Shown piece by piece: positions 7,378-35,906 of a stretch of DNA of 64,000 nt. Within the stretch, counting starts at the first letter, position 1, and each line of letters starts with the position of its first letter. The stretch spans positions 31,449 to 95,448 of the forward strand of contig CADAFS010000002.1 in the NCBI GenBank assembly GCA_902787305.1, read 5' to 3'. The DNA is from an uncultured Pseudomonadota bacterium. GTDB lineage: Bacteria; Pseudomonadota; Alphaproteobacteria; Rs-D84. A program made the position numbers and the translations under genes. Below the pieces are notes generated by a model that was not told the DNA's origin, made no database searches, and saw nothing but the letters and a program-made list of their open reading frames with translations.

Positions 7378-7380
7378 AAG

Positions 7381-8370
7381 ATGTCCGATATCATATTAAA
7401 AAACGATTTGTTTGAAAAAATATTGTTAGAACCAGCCAGGGAGTGTGATGAGTTGCGGATTGTGTCCGGTTTTTCAACACCTGCTATGGTAGTGCATAAT
7501 TTAACTGAAGTAGAAGAGCAATTTGCAAAACCAGATTTAAAAATACAGTTAATTATAGGTATGACCCCCACAATTTCCGGTATTTCTAAAACGCATCATA
7601 AAAACTTTACTAAACTTGTTGCCAATCGTCCAAACTTTGTGTGTTCGTATATAAAATCAGATGCCAGTCCGATACATACAAAGCTTTATACGTGGCTAAG
7701 AAATGGTGTTCCACAAAAAGCATTTCTTGCTTCTGCAAATTATACGATAAACGCATTTAAAAAAGAACAGGATGAAATAGCAACGGAGTGCGACCCTGTT
7801 CAAGCTTTGGAATATTTTAATTCCAAAGTTCCGCTGTCTTTATATTGCACTTGTGATGAAGCAGAGGAAATGGTTAGAGAAGATGTTTTACGGCAACGTG
7901 TTGCAAGAACGAGAGAAAATTCCGATGAAGAACAACAGGTGCTTGTTGAAAATTCAGGCGTGGAAGGGCAAGACACTGTGTCTTTACCATTATTTGTAGT
8001 TAGAGAAAATAGAATTCATACTCATTCTGGTTTGAATTGGGGGCAAAGAGACCGTAGAAATCCGAATCAGGCCTATATACCAATACCGGCAAAAATAGGT
8101 AGAAGTGGTTTTTTCCCGCCACGTGGACAGCCTTTTGCTGTATTGACTTCAGACGGATTCCCGTTTGTATGTGTTGTAGCACAGGGCGGGGATAAAGCGA
8201 TACATACAACAAATAACAATAGTGAATTTGGTGAATATTTTAGACGCCGGTTGGGTGTCCCATTAGGCGCTCCTATAACATTAGATGATTTGGACCGTTT
8301 TGGGAATAGATATGTTAAATTCACAAAAATAAATGAAGAAGAATATTATATGGAATTCAACCCAAGCTAG
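7381..8370 (+). CDS. Putative Type II restriction endonuclease, PLD-superfamily (BfiI/NgoAVII-like) with C-terminal DNA-binding domain
   Basis: Starts 3 nt after the MTase stop (translationally coupled). N-terminal IHTKLYTWL...(20 aa)...LASANYT resembles the metal-independent PLD nuclease active site (His/Lys ... Asn, spacing H+20 as in BfiI). Call is family-level from motifs only. Confidence 0.45.
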   Translation: MSDIILKNDLFEKILLEPARECDELRIVSGFSTPAMVVHNLTEVEEQFAKPDLKIQLIIGMTPTISGISKTHHKNFTKLVANRPNFVCSYIKSDASPIHTKLYTWLRNGVPQKAFLASANYTINAFKKEQDEIATECDPVQALEYFNSKVPLSLYCTCDEAEEMVREDVLRQRVARTRENSDEEQQVLVENSGVEGQDTVSLPLFVVRENRIHTHSGLNWGQRDRRNPNQAYIPIPAKIGRSGFFPPRGQPFAVLTSDGFPFVCVVAQGGDKAIHTTNNNSEFGEYFRRRLGVPLGAPITLDDLDRFGNRYVKFTKINEEEYYMEFNPS

Positions 8371-8792
8371 AAAAGATTGGTGCTGTGTTCGGCCTGCATG
8401 ACGAACTCAGATATAATAAATAAAATTACCATCCCATACGATTAATAAATCTTGATACGGTTGTTTGTTTGACGGACAGTATTTTTGCATTTCGGTATTA
8501 GATTAATGCATAATATGGTTAGAATTTTTTTCATAAATACTATTTACTTTTTTTTATAAATGTTTTATATTCGGATTGAATCCAAGAGATTGGGTTCGGG
8601 GTCTTTACAAACCCGCTTTATCCGATGCGAAAGCATCGTTATCTGATGGTTTCGGTGCTTTGCATCGTAATCATCCCTGGCTTGATGGTCGGGGTGCCGT
8701 AAGCTATACAACAGGGGTAACCTGAAGGCACGGGGTCAATGATAAAGCGACTGTAAACACTCCCGACCGCCTTTTGTCTGTATGGCGGCCAT

Positions 8793-13598: not shown

Positions 13599-14007
13599 AA
13601 TCGGAATTAATAGTAAACACGAGCTTTTTGAATGCCCTAAAACAACGCTTAGAAGGAAGATAATGGGTCGTTAATCGATTGTTCTTTCTTATGAGTATGG
13701 TGTGAATTTGGAGCGATATGGAATGTTTTATGGGACTTCCCAACATTGGTGCAGATAAGTATCATCATTTTTGCATAAAAAGCATAAACTATAAAATTTA
13801 TATAGTTTATTATTAACTATACCGATTAAACCGTAAATACGACCTTATTTTGCTCCGAAGGGTTAAAAATGCTCAAAAAAAGCCATTTTTTCAAGAAAAT
13901 CTGGCGTTTTTTGTAAAATTCTGGCGTACATTTAGTTTTCAACAGTTTATAATAATATCAGATTTAATAAAAGCGTTAAATCATAACTAAAAACAAAAGG
14001 ATATAAA

Positions 14008-14301
14008 ATGAAACAACAGTCTAATCTTTTGAAACAATTCCAGGTATGGATGGAACAAAAGGGTTATAAAAAAACAACACAATCGAATTTGCCAAGCACT
14101 ATTGCAACATATACGGCGTCTTTCCTTCAAATTTGCGAGTGGGAATCTAAAACACCGGAACAAGTTGCAGAATCTATTTCTGACATAGTGCTTGATTACA
14201 CGATAAAAACTCATTCTGCTAGAGGAAGAATGCGCAGTAGGTCCATCCGGGCAAGTGCGGTCGCCTTCAAAAACTTTTTAATCGAATCACAGGTTGCGTG
14301 A
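14008..14301 (+). CDS. Hypothetical small protein (weak resemblance to phage-integrase N-terminal SAM-like/core-binding domain)
   Basis: 97 aa. RBS aaggat 7 nt upstream. Overlaps next ORF by 4 nt (ATGA). Confidence 0.35.
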   Translation: MKQQSNLLKQFQVWMEQKGYKKTTQSNLPSTIATYTASFLQICEWESKTPEQVAESISDIVLDYTIKTHSARGRMRSRSIRASAVAFKNFLIESQVA

Positions 14302-14627
14302 TGAATAAGATTGCCGAATTAAATGATAACCTTAGAAAACATATGTGGTCCCCTGGTCGTAATAAAATCGTTTTGACCAGGGGTGTATGTTCTTTGCCGT
14401 TGATTGAACAAATGTTGTTATTGAAAAAGGTCAGAAATTTTAATGACTTTAATAAAGCAAACGATGTTTATAAACACCATGACTTTGGAAAAATTGAACA
14501 CAATGGGACAAACTATTTTTTCAAGATAGATTATTATGACCCATCGATGGAATATGGTTCAGAAAACCCAGCAAACGAAAATATAACAATCCGGGTTTTA
14601 ACGATAATGCGTGCAGACGAATATTAA
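14298..14627 (+). CDS. DUF3768-like protein (family typical of plasmids/ICEs)
   Basis: 109 aa. Motifs HHDFGKIEH, FFKIDYYD, TIRVLTIMRADEY recalled as the DUF3768 signature. Family call from memory, unverified. Confidence 0.4.
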   Translation: MMNKIAELNDNLRKHMWSPGRNKIVLTRGVCSLPLIEQMLLLKKVRNFNDFNKANDVYKHHDFGKIEHNGTNYFFKIDYYDPSMEYGSENPANENITIRVLTIMRADEY

Positions 14628-14640
14628 AAAAGGACTTGAT

Positions 14641-14784
14641 ATGGCGAATTGCACTTATTTTAAACTTGAAGTTAACGGTATGATATTGCCGGAAATATAT
14701 TTCAACTATGACCAAGCAAAAACCGCATTACAGAATATAGAAAAAACTAATGTTGCTGTAATCGGTAGAGTTATTATGTTTTAA
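14641..14784 (+). CDS. Small ORF (47 aa) MANCTYFKLEVNGMILPEIYF..., hypothetical
   Basis: Immediately downstream of the DUF3768-like ORF. Followed by a clear terminator hairpin. Confidence 0.25.
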   Translation: MANCTYFKLEVNGMILPEIYFNYDQAKTALQNIEKTNVAVIGRVIMF

Positions 14785-14805
14785 CCGTTGATATCAAAAC
14801 AATAA

Positions 14806-14842
14806 AACCTGTATACGCTGGAAAGTATACAGGTTGTTTTTT
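14806..14842 (+). terminator. Rho-independent terminator (aacctgtatac-gctggaaa-gtatacaggtt + T6)
   Basis: 11-bp perfect stem, T-run. Ends the 14008-14784 small-gene operon. Confidence 0.7.
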
Positions 14843-14878
14843 ACATTTGTTCCATATTTGAGTCGTGGCTGCCCCAAT

Positions 14879-15517
14879 CTAGAAATGCTTAATACTTAGT
14901 ATCCGATGACTCAAAGGAGCAACCACAAAGGGTTTGTGTGATGATTTGGAATGTTTTGTATCGTCTGGAAACATCTCGGTTGATAAAAATACTCGATTAT
15001 CGTCAAAATAGGCGTCTTTATTGGCTTTGATTTCCTTTGTTGCATAAAAATACGCTTTGCATTCGGTTCTGTTCATTGTTTGAATATCAACCACATCCGG
15101 AGAATAACAAAAATGTTTTATAGTTTTATCTATCGCCGCGGTTATTTTATAATTGTGGTATCGGTTATTCTGTAAAAACATATGAAAATGCCACTTGTTG
15201 GATGAATTCTGTTCACCGAAACCGATAAATAATAACTGTTTACGAAACCAGTGTCTTGGACTTAATTGCTTTTGAAAATACTTCATAACCCGTCGTAAAT
15301 AACTTCGGGATATTTCCATACTTTTACTACGCTGATTTGTTGGAAATTGGATTGAAATAAAGTGCGTCGGAGCAAATTCACACAACCATTTGCAAATTTC
15401 CCGTCTTAAAATCAATGTTTGTTTTGCATTTTTACGAATTATACAATCAATTCTGTATACATCCACCATATCATTATTTGTAGTTAACATTTTTACCACC
15501 ATTGTTGTTGCAACCAC
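14879..15517 (-). CDS. Hypothetical protein with HUH-endonuclease-like motifs (possible rolling-circle Rep/relaxase-like initiator)
   Basis: Contains HFISIQF (motif-1-like), WHFHMFL (HUH-like H-F-H), and AYFYATKEIK (YxxK motif-3-like) in the canonical order. Start uncertain (several in-frame Met). Not verifiable without search. Confidence 0.3.
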   Translation of the reverse strand: MVATTMVVKMLTTNNDMVDVYRIDCIIRKNAKQTLILRREICKWLCEFAPTHFISIQFPTNQRSKSMEISRSYLRRVMKYFQKQLSPRHWFRKQLLFIGFGEQNSSNKWHFHMFLQNNRYHNYKITAAIDKTIKHFCYSPDVVDIQTMNRTECKAYFYATKEIKANKDAYFDDNRVFLSTEMFPDDTKHSKSSHKPFVVAPLSHRILSIKHF

Positions 15518-15889
15518 AGATGCAAATCAAATCACGATAGGTTGTGGTGGTGTGGTGGTAATGATTCTTTCTGCATCTATGGTTATTAACATAAATTAGA
15601 ACATCTGTTTTATTGTTTTTGCGTTGTGGTTGTATTTTCTTGAAAAAGAGTAAAAAAATTAAACAACACGATTGTTTTTTCGGCTGTTAATTTTTTTAAC
15701 CAACATATATCAACCGCATTGCGTCTATGTTTATCGTCGAATACCACATCGAAAGTCCACAAGCGATACAATATACACATTTTTATAGAACAGTTTTTTG
15801 TGGTGGTTGCATGGACGGAATTATTTTTTTGATAAAAATCCCGGTGTTTTAAACCGGGATTGATGGTTGCACCATATGGCGCTTTATTA

Positions 15890-16078
15890 TTATTTTGGTT
15901 TAGCGATACGCATAAAATCGCAAGTTGATATCAACATACACCTGTTTAATCGTGCAAAATCCGGACCTTCCGTTTTCAAATTTTTATAAATTTGTTTAAC
16001 GGAAAATCTTTTGTCTGGGAATAATTCTTGTAATCTTTCCTTGGCAAATTTTGCTTCAATTTTTAACCTGTTATTCAT
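15890..16078 (-). CDS. Small protein (62 aa), last gene of 3-gene MTase operon; possible DNA-binding/regulatory protein
   Basis: Start overlaps stop of upstream MTase by 8 nt. Basic, helix-rich sequence. Confidence 0.3.
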   Translation of the reverse strand: MNNRLKIEAKFAKERLQELFPDKRFSVKQIYKNLKTEGPDFARLNRCMLISTCDFMRIAKPK

Positions 16079-17294
16079 GATTTTCTCCTTCGGTTTTTGT
16101 ATTAGGGTTAAATTCTGCTTTTACAAATTCGGCAACAACGGCACAGCAGTGTGCACTAACCCAGCATTCCCCCAAAACAGTGCGGAGCAACTTGGTTTTC
16201 TGTCGTGCCCAATATGGAATTTCGATATCATCGGGTAATCCGATTGCACGAAAAATTTCATGTATTGTGAATGTACGGCAATCTGTAAATTGTTCGTTTC
16301 CGTCCTTATCCAAAATTGGTTTACCGTTATCATCAACAATTAATCGACCTGGATGAATCATATGATATGCGGATAGTTCACCACTATTCGTCAAAATCGA
16401 ATGCATTGGTTCATTCCACCTCGCGCGGCTGAAAGCACCAGCGTGTTTAGCACCACTTACTTTTTTAGATAATGTTAGTGGGGAAACAACCCGTTCACCA
16501 GTTGGTGTTATTCGTATTTGGTCTGCTTGCCAAGGTGCGACATACCCAGGTTCATCGTACCAATCTGGTCCACGTTGCCCGAATTCCAGTGTTGGTAAAT
16601 CGTCAATTGCATCTTCCAATGTTAATGGGATTTCTGTGATTGGTTCTGGTAATTTTATTGGTTTAACCTTTGACGCCATAATAATTGTTCGTGGCCGATT
16701 AATTGCTACCCCGAAATGTTTTGCATTTTGAACGGCTTTACAAACATATTGAAAACCAAGATTTCTTAATTCTTTTTCTATTTGGTCGCCAAGCAGAAGT
16801 TCATATTTCTTCGTTTTAAAAGTTAACATATCTTCCGCATTTTCTATGGCGCAGAATTCATATGATGGACAGCGTTTTAAATGTTCCATAACCGCTTCGA
16901 ATAGATATTGTTCATCACTATCTTCATCCTTCCTTGTGTTTGCCCGAGTTATTTGCTGACAGCATGGACTTGCCAGAAGTATTTGCGGTTGTTCTTTATT
17001 TGCAATTTCAGCCAATTTATCTTGCACTTTCGGGTTGGTTATATCACCAATTACCATCGTTGAATTTTTAAAAAGTGCATGATTTAGTTTAGCGCGGTCT
17101 GGTACCAACTCGTTCGTCAAAACAACATCTACCCCTATGTTTTGAAGGTAATACTGGTTTATTCCAGCACACGCAAATAGATTGGTCGCCTTCAAACGAT
17201 GGGGCGTGTCTATTTTGATTTGTTGGGGTTGAACGTGCGACTTGATTTTGTCGCATGTTGTTTTTATTAATAAATCACTGTTATTTCGTGCCAT
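16071..17294 (-). CDS. Second DNA (cytosine-5)-methyltransferase
   Basis: Motif I LFACAGI, motif IV ASPCCQQ (PC), motif VIII QNAKHFGVAINRPRTIIMA, motif IX RTFTIHEIFRAIGLPDD, C-terminal GECWV. Variable TRD between VIII and IX. 14-nt overlap with upstream ORF. Confidence 0.75.
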   Translation of the reverse strand: MARNNSDLLIKTTCDKIKSHVQPQQIKIDTPHRLKATNLFACAGINQYYLQNIGVDVVLTNELVPDRAKLNHALFKNSTMVIGDITNPKVQDKLAEIANKEQPQILLASPCCQQITRANTRKDEDSDEQYLFEAVMEHLKRCPSYEFCAIENAEDMLTFKTKKYELLLGDQIEKELRNLGFQYVCKAVQNAKHFGVAINRPRTIIMASKVKPIKLPEPITEIPLTLEDAIDDLPTLEFGQRGPDWYDEPGYVAPWQADQIRITPTGERVVSPLTLSKKVSGAKHAGAFSRARWNEPMHSILTNSGELSAYHMIHPGRLIVDDNGKPILDKDGNEQFTDCRTFTIHEIFRAIGLPDDIEIPYWARQKTKLLRTVLGECWVSAHCCAVVAEFVKAEFNPNTKTEGENHE

Positions 17295-18414
17295 TGTAAT
17301 CTCCTTTGGCTTCGCTGATTAAATAATTTTGTTTTAGGTATTTGAAACTTTCGTCGTGAATTTCCAAGACCGGAAAAGTCGGATACATTTGTTGGATGAT
17401 TTCCGCATAATATAATGGGTGTTTATCCGTTTTTGTGATTTCTCGGTCAAATACAACGGAATCCATTTTTAGGTTCTGCGGCTTCGGGGCGTCTCCCTTA
17501 CACACTATCACCATTGTTCGATGTTGACGGGTTGTAAAAGCCCCGTTGTGTGATTTACCGGTATCCACAACCGCAAATTCTTTTACCGTAAATCGTAAAT
17601 TTTTCAGAATATCCAATGATTTTTGAATTTGTGATTCATCCAGCCAGAAAAATCCAACGGCATCTTCCGCAATATGATTTCGCATAATTTCAACATTGAT
17701 TTTATACACCAAATCACCATAAATTACCGGAAATTTTGCATTTTCTGGTAAATCAAACATAGGGGCATCACCGGCTTCAAGAACCGTGAATGTTTTGTTT
17801 TCCGATTTTTCATCCGTATGAATTTTTTGATTAAGTTGGTACAAAGTCGGCAAATCTTCAACATCCCAATCGCCACTTTTTAACTTTTTTAACGACTCTT
17901 GGGTGGCGCGTTCGACCATGTCAAAGGTTATATCTTTTCTTATTGTCCATTTTTTTCGCGACAATTTATATTCGTCCCATGCCATTTTATAACTTGGAAA
18001 TCGCCCAGATTTGATATCCCGTTTAATATGCTCTACCTTTTGGACTTCTCGATAAAGCAACCACGAATTCAAATAAATCGCTGTTTCGCATACACCAGTA
18101 TGATTTTCTAATTCATCCGGCGAATTTGCATGTTTGAGTGCACCCTTGGCATCGGATAATAACTTTTCGGCATCTTTTTCATATTCCGCCAATTCTGCTT
18201 CCGTTAAAACTCGAACATCTGGTAATAATGTACAACCAGACACCATTACCGCCGTATTAATCGGATTTGATTCGGTCGTTTCAACGGGTTGAGTTAATTC
18301 TTGCTGTTCTGTTTGTTCGGATAAATCTGCCACCATATCGATTTCTAGACCAATCCTAGACGCATTTAATTCGGCCGCGTTTAAACCATTATTTAAAGAA
18401 TTCATAACTAGCAT
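17281..18414 (-). CDS. Hypothetical 377-aa protein, first gene of MTase operon (candidate cognate restriction endonuclease or other defence partner)
   Basis: No recognisable motifs by eye. Translationally coupled to the C5-MTase. Acidic N-terminus. Probable true start at second ATG (18405) with AAGGA RBS. Confidence 0.4.
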   Translation of the reverse strand: MLVMNSLNNGLNAAELNASRIGLEIDMVADLSEQTEQQELTQPVETTESNPINTAVMVSGCTLLPDVRVLTEAELAEYEKDAEKLLSDAKGALKHANSPDELENHTGVCETAIYLNSWLLYREVQKVEHIKRDIKSGRFPSYKMAWDEYKLSRKKWTIRKDITFDMVERATQESLKKLKSGDWDVEDLPTLYQLNQKIHTDEKSENKTFTVLEAGDAPMFDLPENAKFPVIYGDLVYKINVEIMRNHIAEDAVGFFWLDESQIQKSLDILKNLRFTVKEFAVVDTGKSHNGAFTTRQHRTMVIVCKGDAPKPQNLKMDSVVFDREITKTDKHPLYYAEIIQQMYPTFPVLEIHDESFKYLKQNYLISEAKGDYNGTK

Positions 18415-18799
18415 TCCTTAATTTTTGACAATAAAAGCACCCTTTGCGAAATCGCATTATCGGTTCTGCTCCGGGAAACTTTAGGTTAAAATTTGGATGA
18501 AAAACTTTTCGGTTTACATCCGCTTAAACTTGGTCTAGAATGTTCATTGCATATGAGTCGTTCTAGACCATTAGTTCGATTCTTTAATTTGGGGTTAACG
18601 GTTTCATATCGTTGCTCCATTTTTTTATTTGTTAATTTTTTTTACACAACAATGATTAAATAAACCGCAGAAATTCGCCAGAAATTTATTTTCATTTTTT
18701 GCAAATAAATTTTGGAAAAAATTTTGAAAAAAACAGTTTGTATCAAATTAAAAATTAAAATCCTTGATTTTGGGGCTTTTTTAATTACGATATGTAGCA

Positions 18800-19303
18800 A
18801 TGCTACACATTTGGAAAAACATGGACGGAAAACTGAATATTTTTTTGGCTAATTTATACAAATACCTGAACGAATCGGTGGATTTTTTGGATGTATGGTT
18901 AAAACAAAATCCGATAAAAAAACGAATCATAACGCCAATTGAAATGAAAATATTATATGGATTAAAATACGAAAATTTGAAAACACAGCGGGATATTGAA
19001 AACCATTATAATATGTATCGTTCAACAATTATGAAAACATTAAACAAATTAAAATCAGACGGATTATTAACAATCGAAACAAAATCATTTAAAAATCGCA
19101 CCATAACGCTTACCCAAACAGGTAATGAAACCATTGAATCTATTTTTACACAGATTGCCACTTTTTATCAAAATATGGTGAAAAACGAAATGAAGAATTT
19201 AGATGATGATGGCGTTATGGATGAATGTATAACAACTACACAGAAGGCTTATTTAAATCTCGGCCGAATAATAAAATATTTACCACACAGAAACAAAAAA
19301 TGA
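18800..19303 (+). CDS. Putative winged-helix (MarR-like) transcriptional regulator
   Basis: 167 aa. Central segment QRDIENHYNMYRSTIMKTLNKLKSDGLLTIE resembles the MarR/SlyA HTH-wing. Divergent from the MTase operon. Confidence 0.35.
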   Translation: MLHIWKNMDGKLNIFLANLYKYLNESVDFLDVWLKQNPIKKRIITPIEMKILYGLKYENLKTQRDIENHYNMYRSTIMKTLNKLKSDGLLTIETKSFKNRTITLTQTGNETIESIFTQIATFYQNMVKNEMKNLDDDGVMDECITTTQKAYLNLGRIIKYLPHRNKK

Positions 19304-19379
19304 AATACACTATATGGCGTTTAACCACTGAATAAGCCATCAAACAAATTTCAAGCACACGCGTAAAAAGGCCTTCGTG

Positions 19380-19500
19380 TATTTTTGATTATTTCAATGT
19401 TGGTTTTGGTGTGGGTGGTGGCTAGTCGGGGCTGGCGGCTGGCAGGTGGGTATCCTGGGATGCCGGGTGGGATATGGTAGCCCCCGGGTAGGTGGGTATA
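19380..19500. repeat. G-rich tract with GGTGGG/GGTGGGTAT iterations immediately 3' of integrase stop
   Basis: tggttttggtgtgggtggtggctagtcggggctggcggctggcaggtgggtatcctgggatgccgggtgggatatggtag...ggtaggtgggtataacc. Confidence 0.5.
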
Positions 19501-19514
19501 ACCAGCGCAATCAA

Positions 19515-21095
19515 CTATTTTTTTGACATAACTTTTTTCCAGTAATCAAATTCCGGTTGCAGAAAATCGTATCGCAGTTTATCCGCTTGTTCTTTGATTT
19601 TTGCCAGCGTATGCTTGGAATAGTGTTGTTCCATAATTGTTTGGCCTTTCCAGCCCATAATATTGTTGATATATGATTGTGGAACTAAAAAATCCTGCAA
19701 TTGTAAACTTGCATTATTGCGGAAAGAATGGAAATCCAATTTACCCTTGTATGGTTTAGATAAATTCAAACTACGAATAAACGGTAAAATGCCTTCGGAT
19801 ACATATTTATTATTATAATTACCTTTGCTGTTAACCGCTTGGGTAAATACAGGGTCACTATCTTCGGCTTTTAATCTGCTTTTTTTCCTTTGAGCCCAAT
19901 CAATAAATCCCAAATCCAATAATTGTGTTGGAAGTGGCAACACTCGTATTGTTGCACCAGTTTTTAATTGTTTGGTTTTATTGTCCTTATCTTTATGGAA
20001 ATAGATACAATAACAACCATCTACATCAATAATATCTTTATATTGAATTGTTACTGCTGCATTTGTTCTGGCACCAGCAAACATTCCCATCAAAATAGCC
20101 CAAAAATCGTCAGGGTTATCTTTGAAATGTTTGTGTTTTGGGTTGAATATTTCTTTCAAATCTTTTTCTGTGTATGGCATATGCGGATTTTGGGATTCGC
20201 CTTTTTTATAAACAGGATAGCGGTTGTTAAAATTTTTGTACAATCCGGGATATTCTCTGTCTGCATAATTGTATAATGCCTTTAAATAACCGACTTTCTT
20301 GCCTTTTGTTGCATCTGTCGCCCACTTAGGGTTTGTTTTTATTTCGTTTATTATCGCATCAATTTTTGCTTCATTATTAAATTCAGCGTAATCGGAATCA
20401 ATGGTCAATCCAATTTTTTTGGCCATATGTTTAAAAAACGATTCTTTCTTGCGTTTTTCTGCATCCCCATTATTTTCATGCTGAATCCAAGCGTCTCTCA
20501 ATTCCCTTATCGTGTGTTTTTCCGGTGGTGTTCCAGAACCGGAACCTGAATTTATGTAATCCATTTGTAATATTTTTTGTTGATTTTGCATGATTACTTC
20601 TTGATTGGTTAAAATTTGCCCCATCATTTCTTCTAAGTGTTGTATTTGGTCAATCGTATCTGGGTCAGTAATGCTCAATTTTAATTTTTGTAATCTTGAA
20701 TATATTCCAAGTAAAGCCTTTATTTTTATAGGGTCGTTTTGAATCGATATGCGTTTAACTTTGCACATCATCATTTGACCGCCGCAATCAATTTCCTTAT
20801 CGTATTCATCAAAAACCATATTTTTTGATATCGATTCAGCGGCAAGAATTAATGTTTTTGCTTCAAAGTTTTTTGAATATGAATTGTCTTTCATTTGTTT
20901 CGCCTTTTCCAACGCCTCATAATAATTTTTCGTATGTAATGATTTTATAAAATATCGGCGTTTACCATTTTGACGCGGTAATTCAACCATATAATAAAAC
21001 ACATCACCCCTAAGATAAAGATTGTCATTTGCTTGACAGTTTGCTTTACACTTCTTGAACATAGTTATTTTCTCCTTGTTTTTCAAGTGCGCCAA
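19515..21095 (-). CDS. int: Tyrosine-type site-specific integrase (phage integrase family), tRNA-adjacent
   Basis: 526 aa. C-terminal catalytic region with ARTNAAV (Arg), KTGATIRVLPL, HSFRNNASLQL (H-x-x-R), MGWKGQTIMEQHYSKHT (catalytic Tyr). Lies 100 bp from the tRNA-Gly 3' end, co-oriented. Confidence 0.8.
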   Translation of the reverse strand: MAHLKNKEKITMFKKCKANCQANDNLYLRGDVFYYMVELPRQNGKRRYFIKSLHTKNYYEALEKAKQMKDNSYSKNFEAKTLILAAESISKNMVFDEYDKEIDCGGQMMMCKVKRISIQNDPIKIKALLGIYSRLQKLKLSITDPDTIDQIQHLEEMMGQILTNQEVIMQNQQKILQMDYINSGSGSGTPPEKHTIRELRDAWIQHENNGDAEKRKKESFFKHMAKKIGLTIDSDYAEFNNEAKIDAIINEIKTNPKWATDATKGKKVGYLKALYNYADREYPGLYKNFNNRYPVYKKGESQNPHMPYTEKDLKEIFNPKHKHFKDNPDDFWAILMGMFAGARTNAAVTIQYKDIIDVDGCYCIYFHKDKDNKTKQLKTGATIRVLPLPTQLLDLGFIDWAQRKKSRLKAEDSDPVFTQAVNSKGNYNNKYVSEGILPFIRSLNLSKPYKGKLDFHSFRNNASLQLQDFLVPQSYINNIMGWKGQTIMEQHYSKHTLAKIKEQADKLRYDFLQPEFDYWKKVMSKK

Positions 21096-21196
21096 AGCAA
21101 AAAATGTTGGGAATCCAAAGATTTATTTGCATTGATATGTTTTTTATATCAAACAAAAAATCCGGTCAAAGTGCCGGATTTGTGATAAAACTATCT

Positions 21197-21270
21197 TGGT
21201 GCGGGCGAAGGGAATCGAACCCTCGTCTAAAGCTTGGGAAGCTTTCGTGCTGCCATTATACCACGCCCGC
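21197..21270 (-). tRNA. tRNA-Gly (anticodon CCC)
   Basis: Reverse complement GCGGGCGTGGTATAATGGCAGCACGAAAGCTTCCCAAGCTTTAGACGAGGGTTCGATTCCCTTCGCCCGCACCA. 7-bp acceptor, anticodon loop TTCCCAA, T-arm GGGTTCGATTCCC, encoded CCA. Near-identical in architecture to enterobacterial glyU. Confidence 0.85.
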
Positions 21271-23329: not shown

Positions 23330-24490
23330 TTATTTCATTGGAATTTGCAATAGTTGTTCTGGGAAAATCAAATCCGGGTTTTCAATGGCGTTGCGTTCGG
23401 CAATAATGCTAAACAATACCCCGCGGCGCAGAAAGTTTCGTGCAATGACCCACAAACAATCGCCACGACGCACGGTATAGAATGTGTCGTTGTCACCCGT
23501 CATTTCCGGCATAACAAAATTATGATTTACGGTTGCGATTGTTTGGCCGTCCGCATCATGTAAACGAACGCCCAATGTATATTCCCGTCCCGGCGTCAAT
23601 TTGCCCACATCCGCGCCGATTCCAAAATTTTTGTAATCTGATACACGTGCATCCCCAAGGAACATATCGTTTAATGTAAGTGAAACGCGCAGGCGCGGCA
23701 ACGCGTTTCCGGTGACAACAATACGCCCGGTATCAAGATAGTCGATTTTCGAAATAATTAAATCGCCGTCTTTTAGTATTGCGGGCGATTGCATAACGTG
23801 ACTGCCGTCCTTTGTCATAAGTAATGATACAGAATTGCGATAATCGACATCGGACACATAAAGGAACACCGTGTCTTCGGATTTTTTGTCCGGTTTTGCG
23901 CCAACCAATGACATTGTATAGTTGCCCGGTTTTAACCCGCGGCCCGGTGCATAAACAAATTCACCATCGTCATTTGTTCGTTCGGTCGCGATGATTTTGT
24001 TATTCAAAACAATCGAAATGTTTTTATTTGGTTGCCACCGGCCCGCCACAACAATCATCCCATTTGGTTTAATGCGAACGATATCAAAGGACGGTTTGTC
24101 GGTTGGTGTTGTTGGTGATGGCTTTTGATTTGTTTTAATTGTTGTTTTAATTTCCACTGGGTTGGGCGCACGTACTATGACAACATCACGGCCGGCGTTT
24201 GTTTGCGAAAACATTGCCCAAATCGCGACGAACAAAACAATAATCGCGCAAGCAATAGGAAACCAGTATTCGCGCAATATAGATTTTTTTGTTTCTTCGT
24301 CATGCGTATCCAATTTTGGTTTTGGGCCCGAAACTTTTTCTTCTTCGGTATCATTAAGTGTTTTTAAAAACCGGCGTGTAAAGCGGCGGCGGCGCGAAAG
24401 CCATCCGTCTTGGCGTGCAATTGCGTCATCAATCAAGTTGTCGGTGGAACGTTTTGTTTTGCCCATGGCGGCGGTATTATTGTTTGCCAT
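23330..24490 (-). CDS. Membrane-anchored LysM peptidoglycan-binding domain protein
   Basis: Single TM helix (WFPIACAIIVLFVAIWAMF). C-terminal LysM (YTVRRGDCLWVIARNF...PDLIFPEQLLQIP). Probable start MANNNT (24490) rather than the track's 24538. Confidence 0.55.
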   Translation of the reverse strand: MANNNTAAMGKTKRSTDNLIDDAIARQDGWLSRRRRFTRRFLKTLNDTEEEKVSGPKPKLDTHDEETKKSILREYWFPIACAIIVLFVAIWAMFSQTNAGRDVVIVRAPNPVEIKTTIKTNQKPSPTTPTDKPSFDIVRIKPNGMIVVAGRWQPNKNISIVLNNKIIATERTNDDGEFVYAPGRGLKPGNYTMSLVGAKPDKKSEDTVFLYVSDVDYRNSVSLLMTKDGSHVMQSPAILKDGDLIISKIDYLDTGRIVVTGNALPRLRVSLTLNDMFLGDARVSDYKNFGIGADVGKLTPGREYTLGVRLHDADGQTIATVNHNFVMPEMTGDNDTFYTVRRGDCLWVIARNFLRRGVLFSIIAERNAIENPDLIFPEQLLQIPMK

Positions 24491-24598
24491 TTTATATCTC
24501 CCGTTATGTGATGGTTTTTTCAATAGACAAAATAGCATAAAAAATGTTTCTTTGTCAACTTATTTGTGATATAATTGTTCGGAAAAATGGAGAAAATA

Positions 24599-25677
24599 TG
24601 AAAAAAATAGCAATTATGACAACGGGTGGCGATTGTAGTGGCCTTAACACCGTGATAAATCGTGTTGTTTTGGGTGCAAGTATTCGCGGGTGGCGGGTTT
24701 ACGGAATCGTTGATGGAACGGACGGACTTTGCTGTAAACCGATAAATGTAATAGAAATGAATACGGAAACCGTGCCGATTGAAAATGCCAGGCTTGCGGG
24801 CAGTTTCCTGCACAACGGGCATGCGTGTATGCTAAATTTTGAAAAGGCGGCGCAAACAGGGCGGATAAAAGAGTTTAATAAAACCCTGCGTGATGCATTG
24901 ATAAAATTAAAGTTGGATGCGCTGATTTTGGTCGGTGGCAACGGCAGTTTTTCACTCGCCTGGTTAAATCGTGAAATTTATCGCGATTTGTCGTTGGTAT
25001 GTATTCCAAAGACCATTGATTTTGACATCCCCCTTACCGACCGAACAATCGGGTTTGATACGGCGGTGGAACAATTGACAAGTTATTGTGACCAGATACT
25101 TTTGACGGCACGCAGTCATCATCGATGGTTCGTGGTGCAAACAATGGGACGCGATTGTGGGCGACTTGCGCTGTATGCGGGAATTGCGGTTGGCGCCGAT
25201 GCGATTTTGGTTCCGGAAATAAAGTTTGATGTTGATGAATTGGTGCAACATATAAAGTCCGTAAATCGCGATTATGGTATCATTATGGTGTCCGAAGGTA
25301 TAACGCTGCGCGGGCATTCGGGGCGACCGGCGGATATGATTGCACGCAAACTTACCGCGGCGGGAATTACGAACCGGACCGCATTTCCGGACTATGTTCA
25401 ACGTGCGGGTGATACGGTGGCGGGCGATCGGTTGCTTGCCGCAAAAATGGCAACCTGTGCATTGAATGCAATTGAAAACAATGAAACATATGTTATGACG
25501 GCGCTGCGTGGGAATGATTGTGTGACGGTGCCACTCGCAGAATTCTATGCTGCGGGCGATGTCAGGGCCGACCCGAATATACCGGCGGTCAAAACGGCAA
25601 ACGCGTATATTGAACCCGATGATCCGTTGTTGCATGTGGCAAGTGATTTGGGTGTTTATGTTGGCGTTAGTGGTTAG
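24599..25677 (+). CDS. pfkA: 6-phosphofructokinase (PFK-A family; ATP or PPi type)
   Basis: MKKIAIMTTGGDCSGLN (GGDGS-like), LVGGNGS, MGRDCGRLALYAGIAVGADAILVPE. RBS ggag before ATG 24599. Final codons and stop fall inside a dispersed-repeat copy (25664-25700). Confidence 0.75.
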
Positions 25678-25700
25678 CGTTAGTGTAAGTGGTTAGTGAG
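25664..25700. repeat. Dispersed repeat copy (gcgttagtggttagcgttagtgtaagtggttagtgag) overlapping pfk 3' end
   Basis: Same TTAGTGTAAGTGGTTAGTGA core. Confidence 0.65.
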
Positions 25701-25886
25701 ATTTGTATTCAATTGCTTGACTTTTGGATATTTTTAGTGCAAAATGTATTTGCAAATCCCAAAGATTGCCATTTGAATCAAACCTGTGTGCGGTATGCAC
25801 AAGGCGCATCATCCGTTGAGTTTTCAACCTTGATGTTGGTTTTCTTTGTGGGGTAAAACAGTTTCTTTAAAAAAAGGAGTATAAAA

Positions 25887-26336
25887 ATGGCAACTGTTAT
25901 TCGTTTGGCACGCTATGGTGCAAAAAAACGCCCGTATTATCACATTGTTGTGACCGATTCACGCAATGCGCGTAATTCTGGTAATGTGTTAGAGGTTGTT
26001 GGTAAATACGACCCAATGTTGGCGCGTGATAATGAAAAGCGCGTAATCCTTAAGGTTGAAGAAATCAAGGCGTGGTTGGCAAAGGGTGCGCGTGCATCCG
26101 ACCGTGTGTATCGGTTCCTGGCCAATGCGGGTTTGGTCGCAAAACGTGTGATTCCAACACAGACGAAAAAGAATTTGCAATCTGAAAAAACATTGCAAAA
26201 AATCAAAGACAAGGCCGATAAATTAGCGAAACTGGCCGAAGAAAAAGCCGCGGCCGAAGCCGCCGCCAAGGCCGCAGCTGAGGCACCGGCAGAAACACCG
26301 GCAGCGGAATCCGCAACCGAAGCATCAGCGGAATAA
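25887..26336 (+). CDS. rpsP: 30S ribosomal protein S16 with Ala/Glu-rich C-terminal extension
   Basis: [32 protein letters not shown] is canonical S16. Confidence 0.9.
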
Positions 26337-26339
26337 TAT

Positions 26340-26675
26340 ATGTCATCGGATACGCGCATCTTGGTTGGGGAAAAATATATACCACCTGTAGCAACGGTTG
26401 TTAGTGTGTTATCGCAGTATACTGTTTTATGCGGTTCGTCGGGGCATTCTGTTGACACAGCTTCATGTTCAATGTGCATTCCCGAAACAACATGCCCATT
26501 TAATGGCGAACCGTGTGTTGACAAACAGAAACTTCTTGATGCATGGCGGCGATCCGTTGAATATATGGCGCAACACCATATCAATCATGTCTTTTTTACT
26601 ACCGATTCAATGTTTGGTGGGTGTCCCAAAGGGTTTGCCGAATTATGCCCAGATTCTAATCAGAGGCAACACTAA
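26340..26675 (+). CDS. Hypothetical Cys-rich small protein inserted between rpsP and rimM
   Basis: 111-aa ORF with 7 Cys. Occupies entire rpsP-rimM spacer, starts 4 nt after rpsP stop, ends 3 nt before rimM. Confidence 0.3.
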   Translation: MSSDTRILVGEKYIPPVATVVSVLSQYTVLCGSSGHSVDTASCSMCIPETTCPFNGEPCVDKQKLLDAWRRSVEYMAQHHINHVFFTTDSMFGGCPKGFAELCPDSNQRQH

Positions 26676-26677
26676 AT

Positions 26678-27142
26678 ATGACCGATAGTAAAAACATCTT
26701 GGTTGGGAAAATTGTTGCCCCCCGTGGCATTAGGGGCGAAGTGCGTGTTCAAACCTTTACCGAAAAACCGTCGGATTTTCAAAAACTGGCGGTTTTTGGG
26801 GATAAAATTCCGGCCGACGCATTGCATTTTGTGTGGGCGGTTCCAAACGCCGATGTTGTTGTTATGCGCGTGGACGGTGTTTGCGATAGAAATGCGGCAA
26901 AAACATTGCGCGGGACGGAACTTTTTATAAACCGCGATGATTTGCCCGCCCTGCGTGACGGCGAATATTACCAGGCAGATTTGATTGGAATGATGGTTGT
27001 CCGTGATGGTGCGGAATTGGGCCGCATTGTGTGCTTTCAAAACTTTGGTGCCGGCGACATTATGGAATTAGATAATGGCGATATGGTGTCTTTTCGGGGG
27101 GCGAGTGTAGATTTTGAAAAGAAAACAATAACAGTAAAATAA
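26678..27142 (+). CDS. rimM: Ribosome maturation factor RimM
   Basis: MTDSKNILVGKIVAPRGIRGEVRV... PRC-barrel C-terminus. Conserved position in S16 operon. Confidence 0.85.
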   Translation: MTDSKNILVGKIVAPRGIRGEVRVQTFTEKPSDFQKLAVFGDKIPADALHFVWAVPNADVVVMRVDGVCDRNAAKTLRGTELFINRDDLPALRDGEYYQADLIGMMVVRDGAELGRIVCFQNFGAGDIMELDNGDMVSFRGASVDFEKKTITVK

Positions 27143-27154
27143 AGGGTGATAAAA

Positions 27155-27646
27155 ATGAATGAACAATCGTTGGTTTGCGATATCTGTACATGGGAACGGT
27201 TGCCAGAACCCACTGCGTGTCAATTTCAAGAAGTTAAAGGTGGAAATTTTGGCGGGTGTTATGCGACACCAACAGATCTTTTGAGTGTATTGAAAGATCC
27301 AGAAGCAGTTTTTGGTGTGGGGACAGCACCATTCATAAAGAAATTCAGTTTCGATAACGCTCTTAATCGCATGCCAGCGTGTGAATGTGTCACATCGTTA
27401 TCCGAATGTCCCGTGGCGAAATTTATAGCCGATAACAAAATGAACTGTCTGTTATATTTTGAGAAATGTGGTTACGATTTTTTACATAGTGACGGCAATC
27501 TTAGATATTATTTTCATTATGAATTTAATCTGGACCATGACGATATAAGTAAGTATTATAGGGAGATGCTTAAAATATATAACGCATGTAAAATGCGTCA
27601 ATCACCTGTATTTACAAGATTGAAATCAAAACAAAATGCACTTTAA
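27155..27646 (+). CDS. Hypothetical Cys-rich protein inserted between rimM and trmD
   Basis: ~164 aa with 10 Cys (CDIC...C...C, ACEC...SEC). AGGGTG RBS 7 nt before ATG 27155 (GTG 27146 alternative). AT-rich. Overlaps trmD start by 11 nt. Confidence 0.35.
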   Translation: MNEQSLVCDICTWERLPEPTACQFQEVKGGNFGGCYATPTDLLSVLKDPEAVFGVGTAPFIKKFSFDNALNRMPACECVTSLSECPVAKFIADNKMNCLLYFEKCGYDFLHSDGNLRYYFHYEFNLDHDDISKYYREMLKIYNACKMRQSPVFTRLKSKQNAL

Positions 27647-28334
27647 TATATTGACCGTTTTTCCAGAAATGTTTCCGGGCACACTTGGTGCCGGGGTGGT
27701 TGGTCGTGCCTTGGCGGACGGAATTTGGTCGTATAATGTTATAAACATTCGCGATTTTGCCATAAATGATTACGGCAGTGTTGATGACGCACAATTCGGT
27801 GGCGGTGCCGGCATGGTTATGCGCCCCGATGCGTTGGGTGCGGCGATTGATTCAATCGAAAAACCGGGGCAAATTATATACTTTTCCCCGCGTGGGGCGC
27901 GTTTAGACCAAAAAATGGTACGCAGGTTCGCGGGTGATGCGAAAAACGCGGTTTATACCCTGCTCTGTGGTCGGTACGAAGGAATTGACCAACGGGTAAT
28001 TGATGAATATAATATCATGGAATTATCCATTGGCGATTATATCTTGTCTGGTGGTGAAATCGCCGCGCAAGTTTTTATTGACAGCGCGGTTCGCGTGTTG
28101 GATAATGTCCTTGGTGGCGGTGCGGAATCGACCACCACGGAAAGTTTTGAAATCGGGGGGTTGGAATGGCCGTTATATACCCGCCCGTCGGTATGGCGTG
28201 GACGAAAAGTCCCAGAAGTCCTGCTGTCTGGTCACCACGGCAACATAGAACGGTGGCGGAAACAACAATCGGACGAAATAACAAAAATGCGTCGTCCGGA
28301 TTTAATAAAGGAAAATAAAAATGAACATAATTAA
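27636..28334 (+). CDS. trmD: tRNA (guanine37-N1)-methyltransferase TrmD
   Basis: [15 protein letters not shown]... SPOUT-fold TrmD signature. Conserved operon position. Confidence 0.9.
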
Positions 28335-28728
28335 AAAAATCGAAGAAAAAAATATCGCAAAGGTCAAAGGCGACAAGGTTATTCCGAATTTCAAGGCGGG
28401 TGATACTTTGCGCGTGCATGTAAAAATCAAAGATGGCGACAAATTCCGTATTCAATTGTTCGAAGGTGTCGTGATTGCGCGTGACGGTGGCATGGGCAAT
28501 ACCGCATCGTTCACGGTTCGTCGTGAATCTTATGGTGTTGGTGTTGAACGCAAGTTCCCACTGTACAGCCCGGCAATCGAAAAAATTGAAAAGGTTCGTA
28601 TTGGTCGCGTGCGTCGTGCGAAATTGTTCTTTTTACGGAAATTGTCTGGTAAAAAGGCGCGTATTGTCGAAGATTTGGCGGCAACAAGCGCGGAAAAAGG
28701 CACAAAGACCGAAAAGAGCGAAAAATAA
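28321..28728 (+). CDS. rplS: 50S ribosomal protein L19
   Basis: ...[45 protein letters not shown]... canonical L19. Confidence 0.9.
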
Positions 28729-28750
28729 ATTCCCATCTGATTCACAAAAA

Positions 28751-28775
28751 TCCCGCAAATGCGGGATTTTTTGTT
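28751..28775 (+). terminator. Rho-independent terminator of S16 operon (atcccgcaaatgcgggat + T6)
   Basis: 7-bp stem, T-run. Confidence 0.75.
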
Positions 28776-28816
28776 GTTAAAAATTACCACCTCTCTATTT
28801 CTGTATCGGTCCATAT

Positions 28817-28865
28817 TGTTAGTTGTAAGTGGTTAGTAAAACCGGCGCAAAAACGCCGGTTTTCA
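28817..28865. repeat. Dispersed repeat copy (ttgttagttgtaagtggttagta) + bidirectional terminator hairpin accggcgcaaaaacgccggt
   Basis: Left boundary of second cargo cassette. Hairpin flanked by A-run/T-run. Confidence 0.65.
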
Positions 28866-29591
28866 TTATGCGTTTTTTGTTTTTCCACAACGTGCATTAT
28901 AACAAAACACAAAACCAGAATCCAAATAACATGGCATTGTTTCACGGGCGTAGCGCAACAGATTAAGAGATGGGCGACAAATTTGTGTCGTTGCAAAAAC
29001 AAACGCATCAAAACCCGACAGCAATTTTGCACTTTTGGCCTTTGAACTTTCGTAATCAAAAAACCATTGATTCATTTGATTAATATCCCAATCGCCTTTG
29101 GCATCTTTTTCATTAACAGTAATGCTGTTCAATGTTGCCCGGTCACCATTTTCCATATGTTTCATAAAGGTTTTGTCATATGGATTCTTTACAAACCCAT
29201 GTTGGCCATTAACCCATTCGTCATTTTTTACCGATTTTACTGTATATAAACAATAATTATCGTCAATGATTGTTGGTTTACCAAAATGCATGTCAAAAAC
29301 GGGTTGTATAGACTCTGGAAAAGGAAGCATGACAGCATTCACAACACGTGCACCACATTGCAGCAACAGGCCATAGTCGCGCATATAGCGAATTCCTGTC
29401 GTTGATGTGCTGGCCGAAACATAGTCGTGCAACATAAAGACATATTTGCCTTCAAAAGCCCTTTGTGATATTGGTGTGCGTTGTAAATTCTGTAAATCAT
29501 ATTTTTGCAAAATTGTTTCTGCCCGATTCAGCATTTTAAGTCCTTTATATTTTTTCTTTTTATTTTTGGATTTCGGTTGATTTTTTACCAA
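28866..29591 (-). CDS. Hypothetical protein (241 aa; probable start MLNRAE at ~29535)
   Basis: ORF only. Lys-rich N-terminal extension probably not translated. Located inside the repeat-bracketed cassette. Confidence 0.4.
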   Translation of the reverse strand: MVKNQPKSKNKKKKYKGLKMLNRAETILQKYDLQNLQRTPISQRAFEGKYVFMLHDYVSASTSTTGIRYMRDYGLLLQCGARVVNAVMLPFPESIQPVFDMHFGKPTIIDDNYCLYTVKSVKNDEWVNGQHGFVKNPYDKTFMKHMENGDRATLNSITVNEKDAKGDWDINQMNQWFFDYESSKAKSAKLLSGFDAFVFATTQICRPSLNLLRYARETMPCYLDSGFVFCYNARCGKTKNA

Positions 29592-35456: not shown

Positions 35457-35906
35457 TTATATTACATTTTCCAGTGTAAAATCGTTTAACCAAAGTATTT
35501 TACATTTGATATTAAACATCGGAAAAATTTCCTTTAACAATTTATAGTATTCCGTTAATTGCACACGATATTTTTCATAATACCGTTTTTTATCAATATC
35601 TGTTTTATAATCTAAAACAATAACGGTTTTTGCGTTTTCGTTTACATATAACCTGTCTATGCGGCGACTTAGGAACGTGCCGTCAACATATCCGGCCAAT
35701 GGCACTTCGGCACGCGAAAGTGGTCCCATAATTTCACATAATTCCATATTGCTTTTTATTTTTGAAATTATATCCGCTGGGCCAACAAAATCACCATCAC
35801 AAAATTTAATCTTTGCCATTTGTGCATGCATGTCCGTCCCCGCATGCGTTGCGAATTCTTTTGATTCTAGGTCATGTATAATTTTGTGTAATTTAGTTTG
35901 CTTCAT
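35457..35906 (-). pseudogene. addA: C-terminal PD-(D/E)xK nuclease-domain fragment of addA, in a different frame from the helicase ORF
   Basis: 149-aa ORF with IDRLYVNENAKTVIVLDYKTD (D...D-x-K nuclease motif). Overlaps 3' end of the 865-aa UvrD-like ORF by 14 nt in another frame. Confidence 0.5.

Follow-up and report, generated by a model that had tools for sequence, protein, structure and literature searches.

The rpsP-rimM-trmD-rplS operon is among the most conserved gene strings of bacteria. In Bacillus and many Firmicutes, KhpA (YlqC), a KH-domain protein, and YlqD are encoded between rpsP and rimM. Replacement-type flexible genomic islets, for example O-antigen and capsule loci, are hypervariable, flanked by core genes and exchanged by homologous recombination, and free-standing homing endonuclease genes, such as seg and mob of T4, lie between conserved genes. 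Small zinc-binding activators of methyltransferases, e.g., Trm112, exist as well, and the zinc-ribbon ribosomal proteins bL31, bL32, bL33, bL36 and uS14 have paralogues without the cysteines. In this work, we describe two cysteine-rich open reading frames (ORFs), named ORF A and ORF B, which fill the rpsP-rimM gap (slot 1) and the rimM-trmD gap (slot 2) of this operon in a stretch of DNA of 64,000 nucleotides (nt), called the window (contig CADAFS010000002.1, positions 31,449-95,448, assembly GCA_902787305.1; source lineage Alphaproteobacteria; Rs-D84). Both are probably translated accessory genes that occupy two slot-specific variable positions, are swapped through their flanks and encode zinc-stabilised proteins of lineage-variable function.

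The operon of the window is arranged as follows (aa, amino acids; HMM, hidden Markov model):

25717-25745, + strand, promoter-like site upstream of rpsP, TTGACT-17-CAAAAT with 9 of 12 consensus matches (weak evidence)
25887-26336, + strand, rpsP, ribosomal protein S16, 149 aa (Pfam PF00886, E = 2e-21)
26340-26675, + strand, ORF A, slot-1 gene, 111 aa, seven cysteines (HMM of family G1b, E = 3.9e-19)
26678-27142, + strand, rimM, 154 aa, with a replacement 5' end and start (Pfam PF01782 and PF24986)
27155-27646, + strand, ORF B, slot-2 gene, 163 aa, ten cysteines, long two-domain form (phmmer homologue P0018)
27636-28334, + strand, trmD, 232 aa (Pfam PF01746, E = 3e-43)
28321-28728, + strand, rplS, ribosomal protein L19, 135 aa (Pfam PF01245, E = 2e-41)
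28746-28771, + strand, intrinsic terminator ending the operon, an 11-bp stem followed by a T run

The first-pass annotation of this DNA had correctly reported a 111-aa ORF with seven cysteines in the rpsP-rimM gap and a ~164-aa ORF with ten cysteines in the rimM-trmD gap; the latter measures 163 aa from its ATG, and its CxxC and CxC pairs are C8-x2-C11 and C76-x-C78. It had given ORF A spacers of 3-4 nt, which holds upstream (3 nt) but not downstream, where the spacer is 2 nt. The 11-nt overlap of ORF B with the start of trmD was found again, as were its own AGGGTG ribosome-binding site (27143-27148, 6 nt 5' of the ATG) and its AT-richness, with a GC content of 0.37 and a GC content at third codon positions (GC3) of 0.31, compared with 0.47-0.48 and about 0.45 in rimM and trmD. 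On the + strand, no terminator-like site was found from rpsP to 28050, and the sole strong terminator is the one 3' of rplS. An Rfam scan of the whole window matched two tRNAs only, so the slots carry no known RNA element. The slot genes would have neither a promoter nor a terminator of their own and would be expressed from the operon transcript, with ORF B translated via its own Shine-Dalgarno (SD) site and ORF A via coupling to the upstream stop codon. The C-terminal extension of S16 (residues ~112-149) is rich in Ala, Glu and Lys, of low complexity and variable, many relatives aligning over residues 1-113 only. An antisense ORF of 214 aa (25940-26584, - strand), which overlaps rpsP and ORF A, is almost certainly spurious and could mislead gene callers.

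The window belongs to Candidatus Enterousia, an alphaproteobacterium of the gut and rumen whose genome is smaller than 1 Mb. Enterousia is placed in the order Rs-D84, and its genomes are mostly below 1 Mb and encode a fermentative metabolism with neither a tricarboxylic acid cycle nor a respiratory chain (PMC12306168). The loci that matched the window's TrmD came nearly all from gut or rumen metagenome-assembled genomes (MAGs) named Candidatus Enterousia or unclassified Alphaproteobacteria. The best 80 of the 413 TrmD matches, all Enterousia/Rs-D84 MAG loci with a TrmD 81-97% identical to that of the window, were compared and are referred to by numbers beginning with L. The genes rpsP, rimM, trmD and rplS were mapped in each locus before the gaps were measured, and gap sizes and gene counts are based on 73 loci.

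The analysis of the window's clade, i.e., of loci with trmD DNA at least 93.5% identical, showed that the contents of both slots are replaced between close relatives. The window and locus L003, which represents a sister species, could be aligned in three blocks:

24001-26336, 95.9% identity to L003
26689-27147, 97.2% nucleotide identity to L003 (rimM)
27623-28772, 96.1% identity to L003

Nothing between these blocks was alignable; the first of them ends with the final base of the rpsP stop codon, and the breaks lie 0-13 nt from the core genes. The same breakpoints were obtained with L001, L002, L004 and L006. No nucleotide homology to ORF A was detected in L003 or L001, although the flanks are 94-96% identical, and none to ORF B (27148-27622) in L003. 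Since nucleotide homology is lost where the core genes end, both ORFs are non-homologous replacements. The slots of the compared members of the clade contain the following genes:

Window: slot 1, ORF A; slot 2, ORF B
L003: slot 1, 57-aa and 127-aa G1b genes; slot 2, 89-aa family-3 gene
L001: slot 1, G1a gene; slot 2, family 2 and family 4
L002: slot 1, empty; slot 2, family 3 (98.6% identical to that of L003)
L004: slot 1, empty; slot 2, family 2

A swap by recombination through the flanks most likely accounts for this distribution. The alleles would be exchanged by homologous recombination via the conserved flanking genes and not by mobility of their own, which would explain both why the families stay in their own slot and why RimM, whose gene separates the slots, has diverged much more than the neighbouring proteins. 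The short RimM (154 aa) is 52-95% identical at the protein level across the genus, compared with 81-97% for TrmD and 81-100% for L19, and the rimM DNA of the window is 84.5% identical to that of L001, while the flanks reach 93.5-96.7%. In other clades, the cassettes are vertically inherited and diverge somewhat faster than trmD. The slots resemble the replacement-type flexible islets in that they hold discrete, non-homologous alleles at a fixed position, with breakpoints at the flanks and a mosaic distribution over near-identical backbones. However, they are only 0.2-3.4 kb long, are located inside an essential ribosomal operon without a promoter of their own, and contain genes for four-cysteine proteins of 50-220 aa in place of surface-structure genes.

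Across the 73 loci, the spacing of the core genes ranged from 2 to 1010 nt between rpsP and rimM and from -11 to 3381 nt between rimM and trmD, the latter being the distance that the first-pass annotation had proposed to compare in related genomes. Slot 1 contained 0-3 genes and was empty in 27 of the 73 loci, slot 2 contained 0-9 genes and was empty in 8, and four species (L038, L041, L042 and L053) had no gene in either slot. The bases of the gaps were covered by + strand ORFs to 91% and by - strand ORFs to 56%. The 182 slot genes encode proteins of about 50-220 aa (median 88 aa), many of only 54-90 aa. Cysteine makes up 5.2% of these proteins, compared with 0.45% of the four core proteins of the window, and 146 of the 182 contain at least four cysteines. 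The GC content of both slots is 7-8 points lower than that of the flanking core genes, and the spacers are short, with medians of 8 nt from one slot gene to the next and of 2 nt before the following core gene. The largest slot-2 arrays occur in L014 (1614-4999; up to ~9 tandem genes, 3381 nt), L015 (2511-4999) and L063 (4056-4999), the last with three recent tandem paralogues of one family.

BLAST clustering combined with local HMMs divided the slot genes into families. Slot 1 holds G1a (80 aa, helical, with few cysteines) and the four-cysteine family G1b, and slot 2 about ten families, most of which follow a common plan, with a C-x4-7-C-P motif in the N-terminal part and [LIV]-C-x2-C towards the C-terminus. 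Several slot-2 families were joined by hhalign at 50-90% probability, and no pair of a slot-1 and a slot-2 family reached 50%. All G1a matches and 34 of the 38 G1b matches, ORF A included, were located in gap 1. The slot-2 families matched in gap 2, except for a recurrent minus-strand ORF of L011 and short contigs in which the gap could not be defined. The families occur almost nowhere else in the 10-kb flanks or in the 64-kb window. Most of them are basic (median isoelectric point, pI, 8.7-9.5) and none has a transmembrane-like segment; the slot proteins are thus predicted to be soluble and cytoplasmic. The slot-1 genes share with those of KhpA and YlqD their small size, common orientation, position at the rpsP-rimM junction and, presumably, co-transcription with the operon. 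The latter genes, however, are conserved, single-copy and not cysteine-rich, whereas the slot-1 genes of Enterousia are hypervariable, dispensable and accompanied by a second slot before trmD, and neither ORF A nor the slot-1 representatives (G1a and G1b) matched the Pfam signatures of the KH domain or YlqD at E <= 0.1.

The comparison with cassette-free relatives also indicated how ORF A obtained its start. In L002, L004 and L006, rimM begins after the rpsP stop codon and the spacer TAT, and the same junction is present in the window, where the first 34 nt of the relatives' rimM form the 5' end of ORF A (MSSDTRILVGEK...). The blastn alignments to these three loci extend to window positions 26368-26376. 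A second rimM 5' end (MTDSKNILVGK...) follows the ORF A stop codon. The elements concerned are:

26340-26373, + strand, 5' part of ORF A that originates from the 5' end of the ancestral rimM, 34 nt, ~12 codons with the start (alignment to L002, L004 and L006)
26357-26373, + strand, direct repeat copy 1 (CATCTTGGTTGGGGAAA), left over from the former rimM 5' end (repeat family D4)
26695-26711, + strand, direct repeat copy 2, within the current rimM 5' end (repeat family D4)

The two D4 copies of 17 nt are 94% identical and spaced by 338 nt, and this direct repeat exists because there are two copies of the rimM 5' end. Past the junction, the segment YIPPVATVVSV of ORF A aligns with residues 11-21 (YVAPLTETFDV) of its homologue in L054, and the 3' ends (...QRQH, stop) agree as well. 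These alignments identify ORF A as a fusion of a cassette gene with the ancestral rimM start. A donor segment consisting of a G1b gene and rimM would have recombined into a cassette-free recipient, with the left crossover inside the rimM 5' end, so that the old rimM start was fused to the G1b cassette. The idea that every G1b gene opens with rimM-like codons was rejected, as only ORF A of the window does so and the other G1b genes have starts of their own. Since the start region of ORF A drives the essential rimM in relatives, ORF A is very likely translated, despite the missing public gene call.

The cysteines of ORF A are located at residues 31, 43, 46, 52, 59, 95 and 103, and four of them form the core of the protein:

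26493-26648, + strand, four-cysteine core of ORF A, residues 52-103 (CPF-x4-C, helix, CP-x6-C; family alignments A1 and A2)

In the G1b alignment A1, comprising 16 sequences, C52, C59 and C103 are invariant, P53, C95 and P96 are nearly invariant, and the first 50 residues of ORF A are variable. The family signature, CP[YF]-x3-5-C, a helix (W..A[IV].Y.A) and CP-x4-9-C, is present in ORF A. Conservation of the cysteines, another check that had been proposed, therefore extends to four of the seven (52, 59, 95 and 103), while the other three are variable. The nearest relative of ORF A, from L054, is 37% identical, and when the profile of its family was searched against 5.8 billion proteins, 13 unnamed members without Pfam domains were retrieved. 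The hydrophobic N-terminus of ORF A was considered as a signal peptide or lipoprotein signal and rejected, as the segment is not kept in homologues and there is no proper lipobox.

The start region and the core of ORF B are located as follows:

27135-27157, + strand, translation start region of ORF B (TAAAATAAAGGGTGATAAAAATG), with the SD motif AGGGTG at 27143-27148 (repeat family D1)
27356-27604, + strand, slot-2 core of ORF B, residues 68-150 (C78-x6-C85-P, helix, hairpin, helix, Y142-x2-C145; cluster-1 HMM)

The start region is 78-83% identical to those of rpsP (25867-25889) and rplS (28301-28323), and an alternative in-frame GTG at 27146 would give a protein of 166 aa. An exhaustive phmmer search of 1.84 billion representatives with ORF B found a 99% identical copy, one true homologue, P0018, and two repeat-protein artefacts. 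P0018 has 153 aa and is 34% identical to ORF B over residues 39-159 (E = 3.4e-11). It is encoded on the Enterousia contig L081, which carries the 3' end of rimM, an 83-aa four-cysteine ORF, P0018 and the start of trmD, i.e., P0018 occupies the slot of ORF B; the RimM fragment of L081 is ~80% identical to RimM of the window (counted by hand). ORF B itself matched the slot-2 cluster-1 HMM over residues 68-150 (E = 7.7e-5, in a database of 6765 ORFs). The HMM built from ORF B and P0018 produced weak matches only (E >= 0.01); 18 of the 20 matches listed at E <= 1 were + strand ORFs of the rimM-trmD slot, including a 164-aa two-domain gene of L014, the other two being minus-strand ORFs outside the slots (E = 0.1 and 0.9). 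On this basis, ORF B is assigned to the slot-2 superfamily as a divergent two-domain member. In alignment A5, with 29 diverse slot-2 sequences, three cysteine columns are invariant and one nearly so. The four cysteines of the conserved cores plausibly bind zinc, as suggested by conserved cysteine pairs in cytoplasmic proteins that have neither a signal peptide nor a transmembrane segment, and they would hold a structural site that stabilises a small binding module.

The possibility that both ORFs are non-coding, expanded spacers left free of stop codons by chance can be regarded as already refuted by conservation, and we consider it almost certainly wrong. In its favour, the public gene calls for a 100% identical contig (L088, where 2160-2500 corresponds to window 26337-26677) lack ORF A, and word-indexed homology searches found no match to ORF A and only the 99% identical copy of ORF B; in addition, the structure models of both proteins are poor. 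The same public annotation begins trmD at a later codon, and small slot genes are likely under-annotated in Enterousia MAGs. The near-empty word-indexed searches are due to limited sensitivity and not to orphan status. The first-pass annotation had named a lack of conservation in any relative as a sign of spurious ORFs; instead, ORF A matches its family HMM at E = 3.9e-19 with an invariant cysteine core, ORF B has a syntenic homologue (E = 3e-11), and ORF A uses the start region that serves rimM in relatives. After shuffling, a + strand stop-free run at least as long as that observed appeared in 82 of 20000 cases for gap 1 and in 0 of 20000 for gap 2. The ratio of nonsynonymous to synonymous substitution rates (dN/dS, NG86) had a median of 0.16 in 50 orthologous pairs from sister slot families, which shows that the slot genes are real coding genes; the medians of the larger families ranged from 0.13 to 0.26, whereas the value for the internal control, an overlapping ORF of 45 aa that is spurious, was 1.3. 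Ahead of their first possible start, 77 of 139 members of slot families have an SD-like motif, compared with 9% of random positions. Taken together, ORF A and ORF B are judged to be genuine genes. In the family of the three L063 paralogues, the pairs L022/L025 and L025/L063 had dN/dS values of 0.7-0.9, so that selection on them may be relaxed or positive.

Several results weigh against our interpretation of the two ORFs as swapped, zinc-stabilised accessory genes. No donor of either cassette was found, the closest relative of ORF A being only 37% identical, and the recombinational replacement is therefore deduced from breakpoints and not observed. Nor was a near-identical cassette seen in a distant species, the best case being slot 2 of L002 and L003 (98.6%, with trmD at 95.6%). 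In ORF B, Tyr142 replaces the third cysteine, which is present in all 28 other aligned proteins, and P0018 has all four. Only three of the ten ORF B cysteines (78, 85 and 145) are common to P0018, while the N-terminal CxxC is not, so that the proposed check of cysteine conservation gave a partial result here too; among the slot proteins, zinc binding is least certain for ORF B. Beyond P0018, its link to the slot-2 families is weak (7.7e-5 in a small database and 0.01 in the reverse direction). Both proteins, in contrast to the majority of those encoded in the slots, are acidic (pI 5.9). AlphaFold2 gave no usable model and none good enough to reveal a zinc site, with a mean confidence score (pLDDT) of 47 for ORF A (14 sequences), in which helix 59-78 was the sole confident element, and of 48 for ORF B (3 sequences), and a Foldseek search of the PDB with the latter gave a meaningless best E of 3.4.

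The first-pass annotation had left the choice between novel ribosome-associated zinc-binding proteins and insertions into an essential operon. The second option is supported by the relatives with 93-96% identical trmD, whose slots are empty or contain unrelated genes, while the first has the operon context as its evidence. Three points had escaped that annotation: the variability of two slots throughout the genus, the old rimM start at the head of ORF A, and the lack of conservation of most of the cysteines counted. We think it unlikely that the slot proteins serve ribosome biogenesis as dedicated cofactors, be it as small zinc-binding partners of RimM in slot 1 and of TrmD in slot 2 or as ribosome-associated proteins that are lineage-specific. 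Their genes are nested in the operon, with translation presumably coupled to that of rimM and trmD, but L038, L042, L053 and L041 have nothing in either slot, 27 of 73 loci lack a slot-1 gene, and the copy number varies from 0 to 9. Each family is bound to one slot, which is equally explained by exchange through the flanks. Most families are basic like ribosomal proteins, although ORF A and ORF B are acidic, and ORF B has a start region similar to that of rpsP and rplS. The divergence of RimM (52-95%, with TrmD at 81-97%) could mean co-evolution, yet unrelated slot genes are found in species whose trmD DNA is 95-96% identical. Trm112 provides a precedent, as it is likewise a small four-cysteine zinc-type protein, and the slot-2 genes lie directly upstream of, or overlap, a tRNA methyltransferase gene. 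However, the slot-2 cysteines are spaced differently (C-x4-7-CP ... CxxC), close relatives lack the protein or have another in its place, and neither ORF B nor 28 other slot-2 proteins matched PF03966 (Trm112/DUF343) at E <= 0.1; TrmD is not known to need a partner. The zinc-ribbon ribosomal proteins are also small, mostly basic, equipped with four cysteines and encoded in ribosomal operons, but the slot proteins have no sequence relationship to them and are hypervariable, variable in copy number and dispensable. No Trm112, KH or ribosomal protein match was found in Pfam even at E = 0.1. Since some species live without the cassettes, a core ribosomal role is unlikely.

It is more doubtful still that the cassettes are selfish or mobile insertions, homing-endonuclease-like or integron-like, which target the borders between conserved genes and are carried along by an essential operon. 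As in the case of homing endonuclease genes, small AT-rich, co-oriented ORFs are present or absent between conserved genes of close relatives; their boundaries fall at gene ends, their GC content is below that of the flanks, the same junction carries different families in different genomes, and a 17-nt direct repeat surrounds the ORF A insert. The repeat, however, is accounted for by the duplicated rimM 5' end. No HNH, GIY-YIG, LAGLIDADG, transposase or integrase domain was detected in Pfam at E <= 0.1, and cysteine and proline form the only invariant columns in the alignments of the families. Neither PHROGs nor a tblastn search of 50,697 phage genomes yielded a match, the families are slot-specific with almost no copies elsewhere in the flanks or the window, many genes are too small for a nuclease (54-90 aa), and the proteins are under purifying selection. 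The spacers of 2-15 nt (medians 8 and 2 nt) leave no room for attC-type integron sites, and no integrase adjoins the operon. Another possibility, to which we give somewhat more credit than to dedicated cofactors while still considering it rather unlikely, is that the slots are arrays of conflict genes (orphan immunity or antitoxin-like, anti-phage or anti-defence genes) whose diversity is kept by negative frequency-dependent selection in the gut. This is a functional sub-hypothesis of the explanation preferred here and not a structural alternative to it. It is consistent with the extreme diversity between alleles and purifying selection inside each allele type, the tandem arrays of up to nine small genes with recent paralogues (three in L063), the low GC content, the mosaic among near-identical backbones and the gut and rumen habitat. 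Against it, there is no PADLOC or PHROGs match and no adjacent toxin, secretion or defence gene, and the immunity arrays known to us are usually neither cysteine-rich nor located inside ribosomal protein operons. In general, Pfam, NCBIfam, PHROGs and PADLOC gave nothing above noise for ORF A, for ORF B or for the representatives chosen from each slot family, and the PDB sequences, searched with profiles of the two family alignments, gave chance matches only (E = 0.2-0.3).

Returning to swapped accessory genes as the preferred explanation, the function of the slots would be dispensable and lineage-variable. We infer, and favour over a fixed component of ribosome assembly, that the slot proteins are accessory RNA- or protein-binding factors under diversifying pressure from microbial or phage conflict or from interaction with a partner. 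Dispensability, copy-number variation and allele turnover together argue for an accessory role, probably related to conflict or niche. A bolder version, in which the two slots form a genus-wide system of zinc-stabilised mini-proteins that act on the translation apparatus and were diversified by an arms race, seems improbable to us. Such a system might act on RimM and the 30S head, on TrmD and tRNA, or on the ribosome itself, and ribosome biogenesis would be protected or re-tuned against factors of phages or competitors. If true, it would place a hypervariable conflict locus within a universal housekeeping operon.

A literature search found nothing on cysteine-rich genes in the rpsP-rimM-trmD-rplS operon, and the Enterousia papers cover metabolism and genome size only. 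Replacement-type islets between core genes are a known mode of variation, but the placement of two slots in a universal operon, the unannotated four-cysteine families and the capture of the rimM start appear to be undescribed in the searchable literature. In genomes below 1 Mb, two hotspots inside this operon thus hold more than 10 unannotated families of four-cysteine mini-proteins that are swapped among near-identical backbones, which means that genome streamlining is compatible with a variable pool of accessory genes nested in an essential, highly expressed operon. With such nesting, a separate promoter is unneeded and large deletions would be lethal. The window also preserves a base-by-base record of how a cassette captured the start of the essential rimM while rimM was given a new one. 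About 180 small proteins, partly missed by automated annotation, are added to the genus, and the slot genes constitute a defined set of candidates for lineage-specific factors of ribosome biogenesis or of conflict in the gut and rumen.

The region downstream of rplS (window 28772-29523) varies as well: no nucleotide homology to L001 or L003 was found there, and the orphan 241-aa ORF of the window in this region (28866-29591, - strand) has no Pfam, NCBIfam or PADLOC match. Minus-strand ORFs that follow rplS in L001 (7502-7783), L003 (7275-7544), L011 (7285-7554) and L027 (6500-6787) matched the G1b HMM at E = 1e-4 to 7e-6, and a third slot may be present 3' of rplS.

Apart from the operon, the window contains a low-GC island (GC3 0.23-0.34) beside a tRNA, at 6301-21270:

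6301-7377, 5-methylcytosine (m5C) DNA methylase
7381-8370, NgoFVII-type restriction enzyme
8793-13598, orphan ORF of 1601 aa
14879-15517, - strand, Rep-like protein
16071-17294, - strand, second m5C methylase
19515-21095, - strand, tyrosine integrase, adjoining the tRNA at 21200-21270

The integrase of the window belongs to this separate tRNA-linked island. Two further orphan ORFs with low GC3 (0.25-0.31) and no Pfam match lie beside core genes, one at 3046-3729 (+ strand) after dnaK and the other at 35457-35906 (- strand) between large genes of DNA-repair type. The nesting of accessory genes in strings of core genes may therefore be general in the genome of the window.

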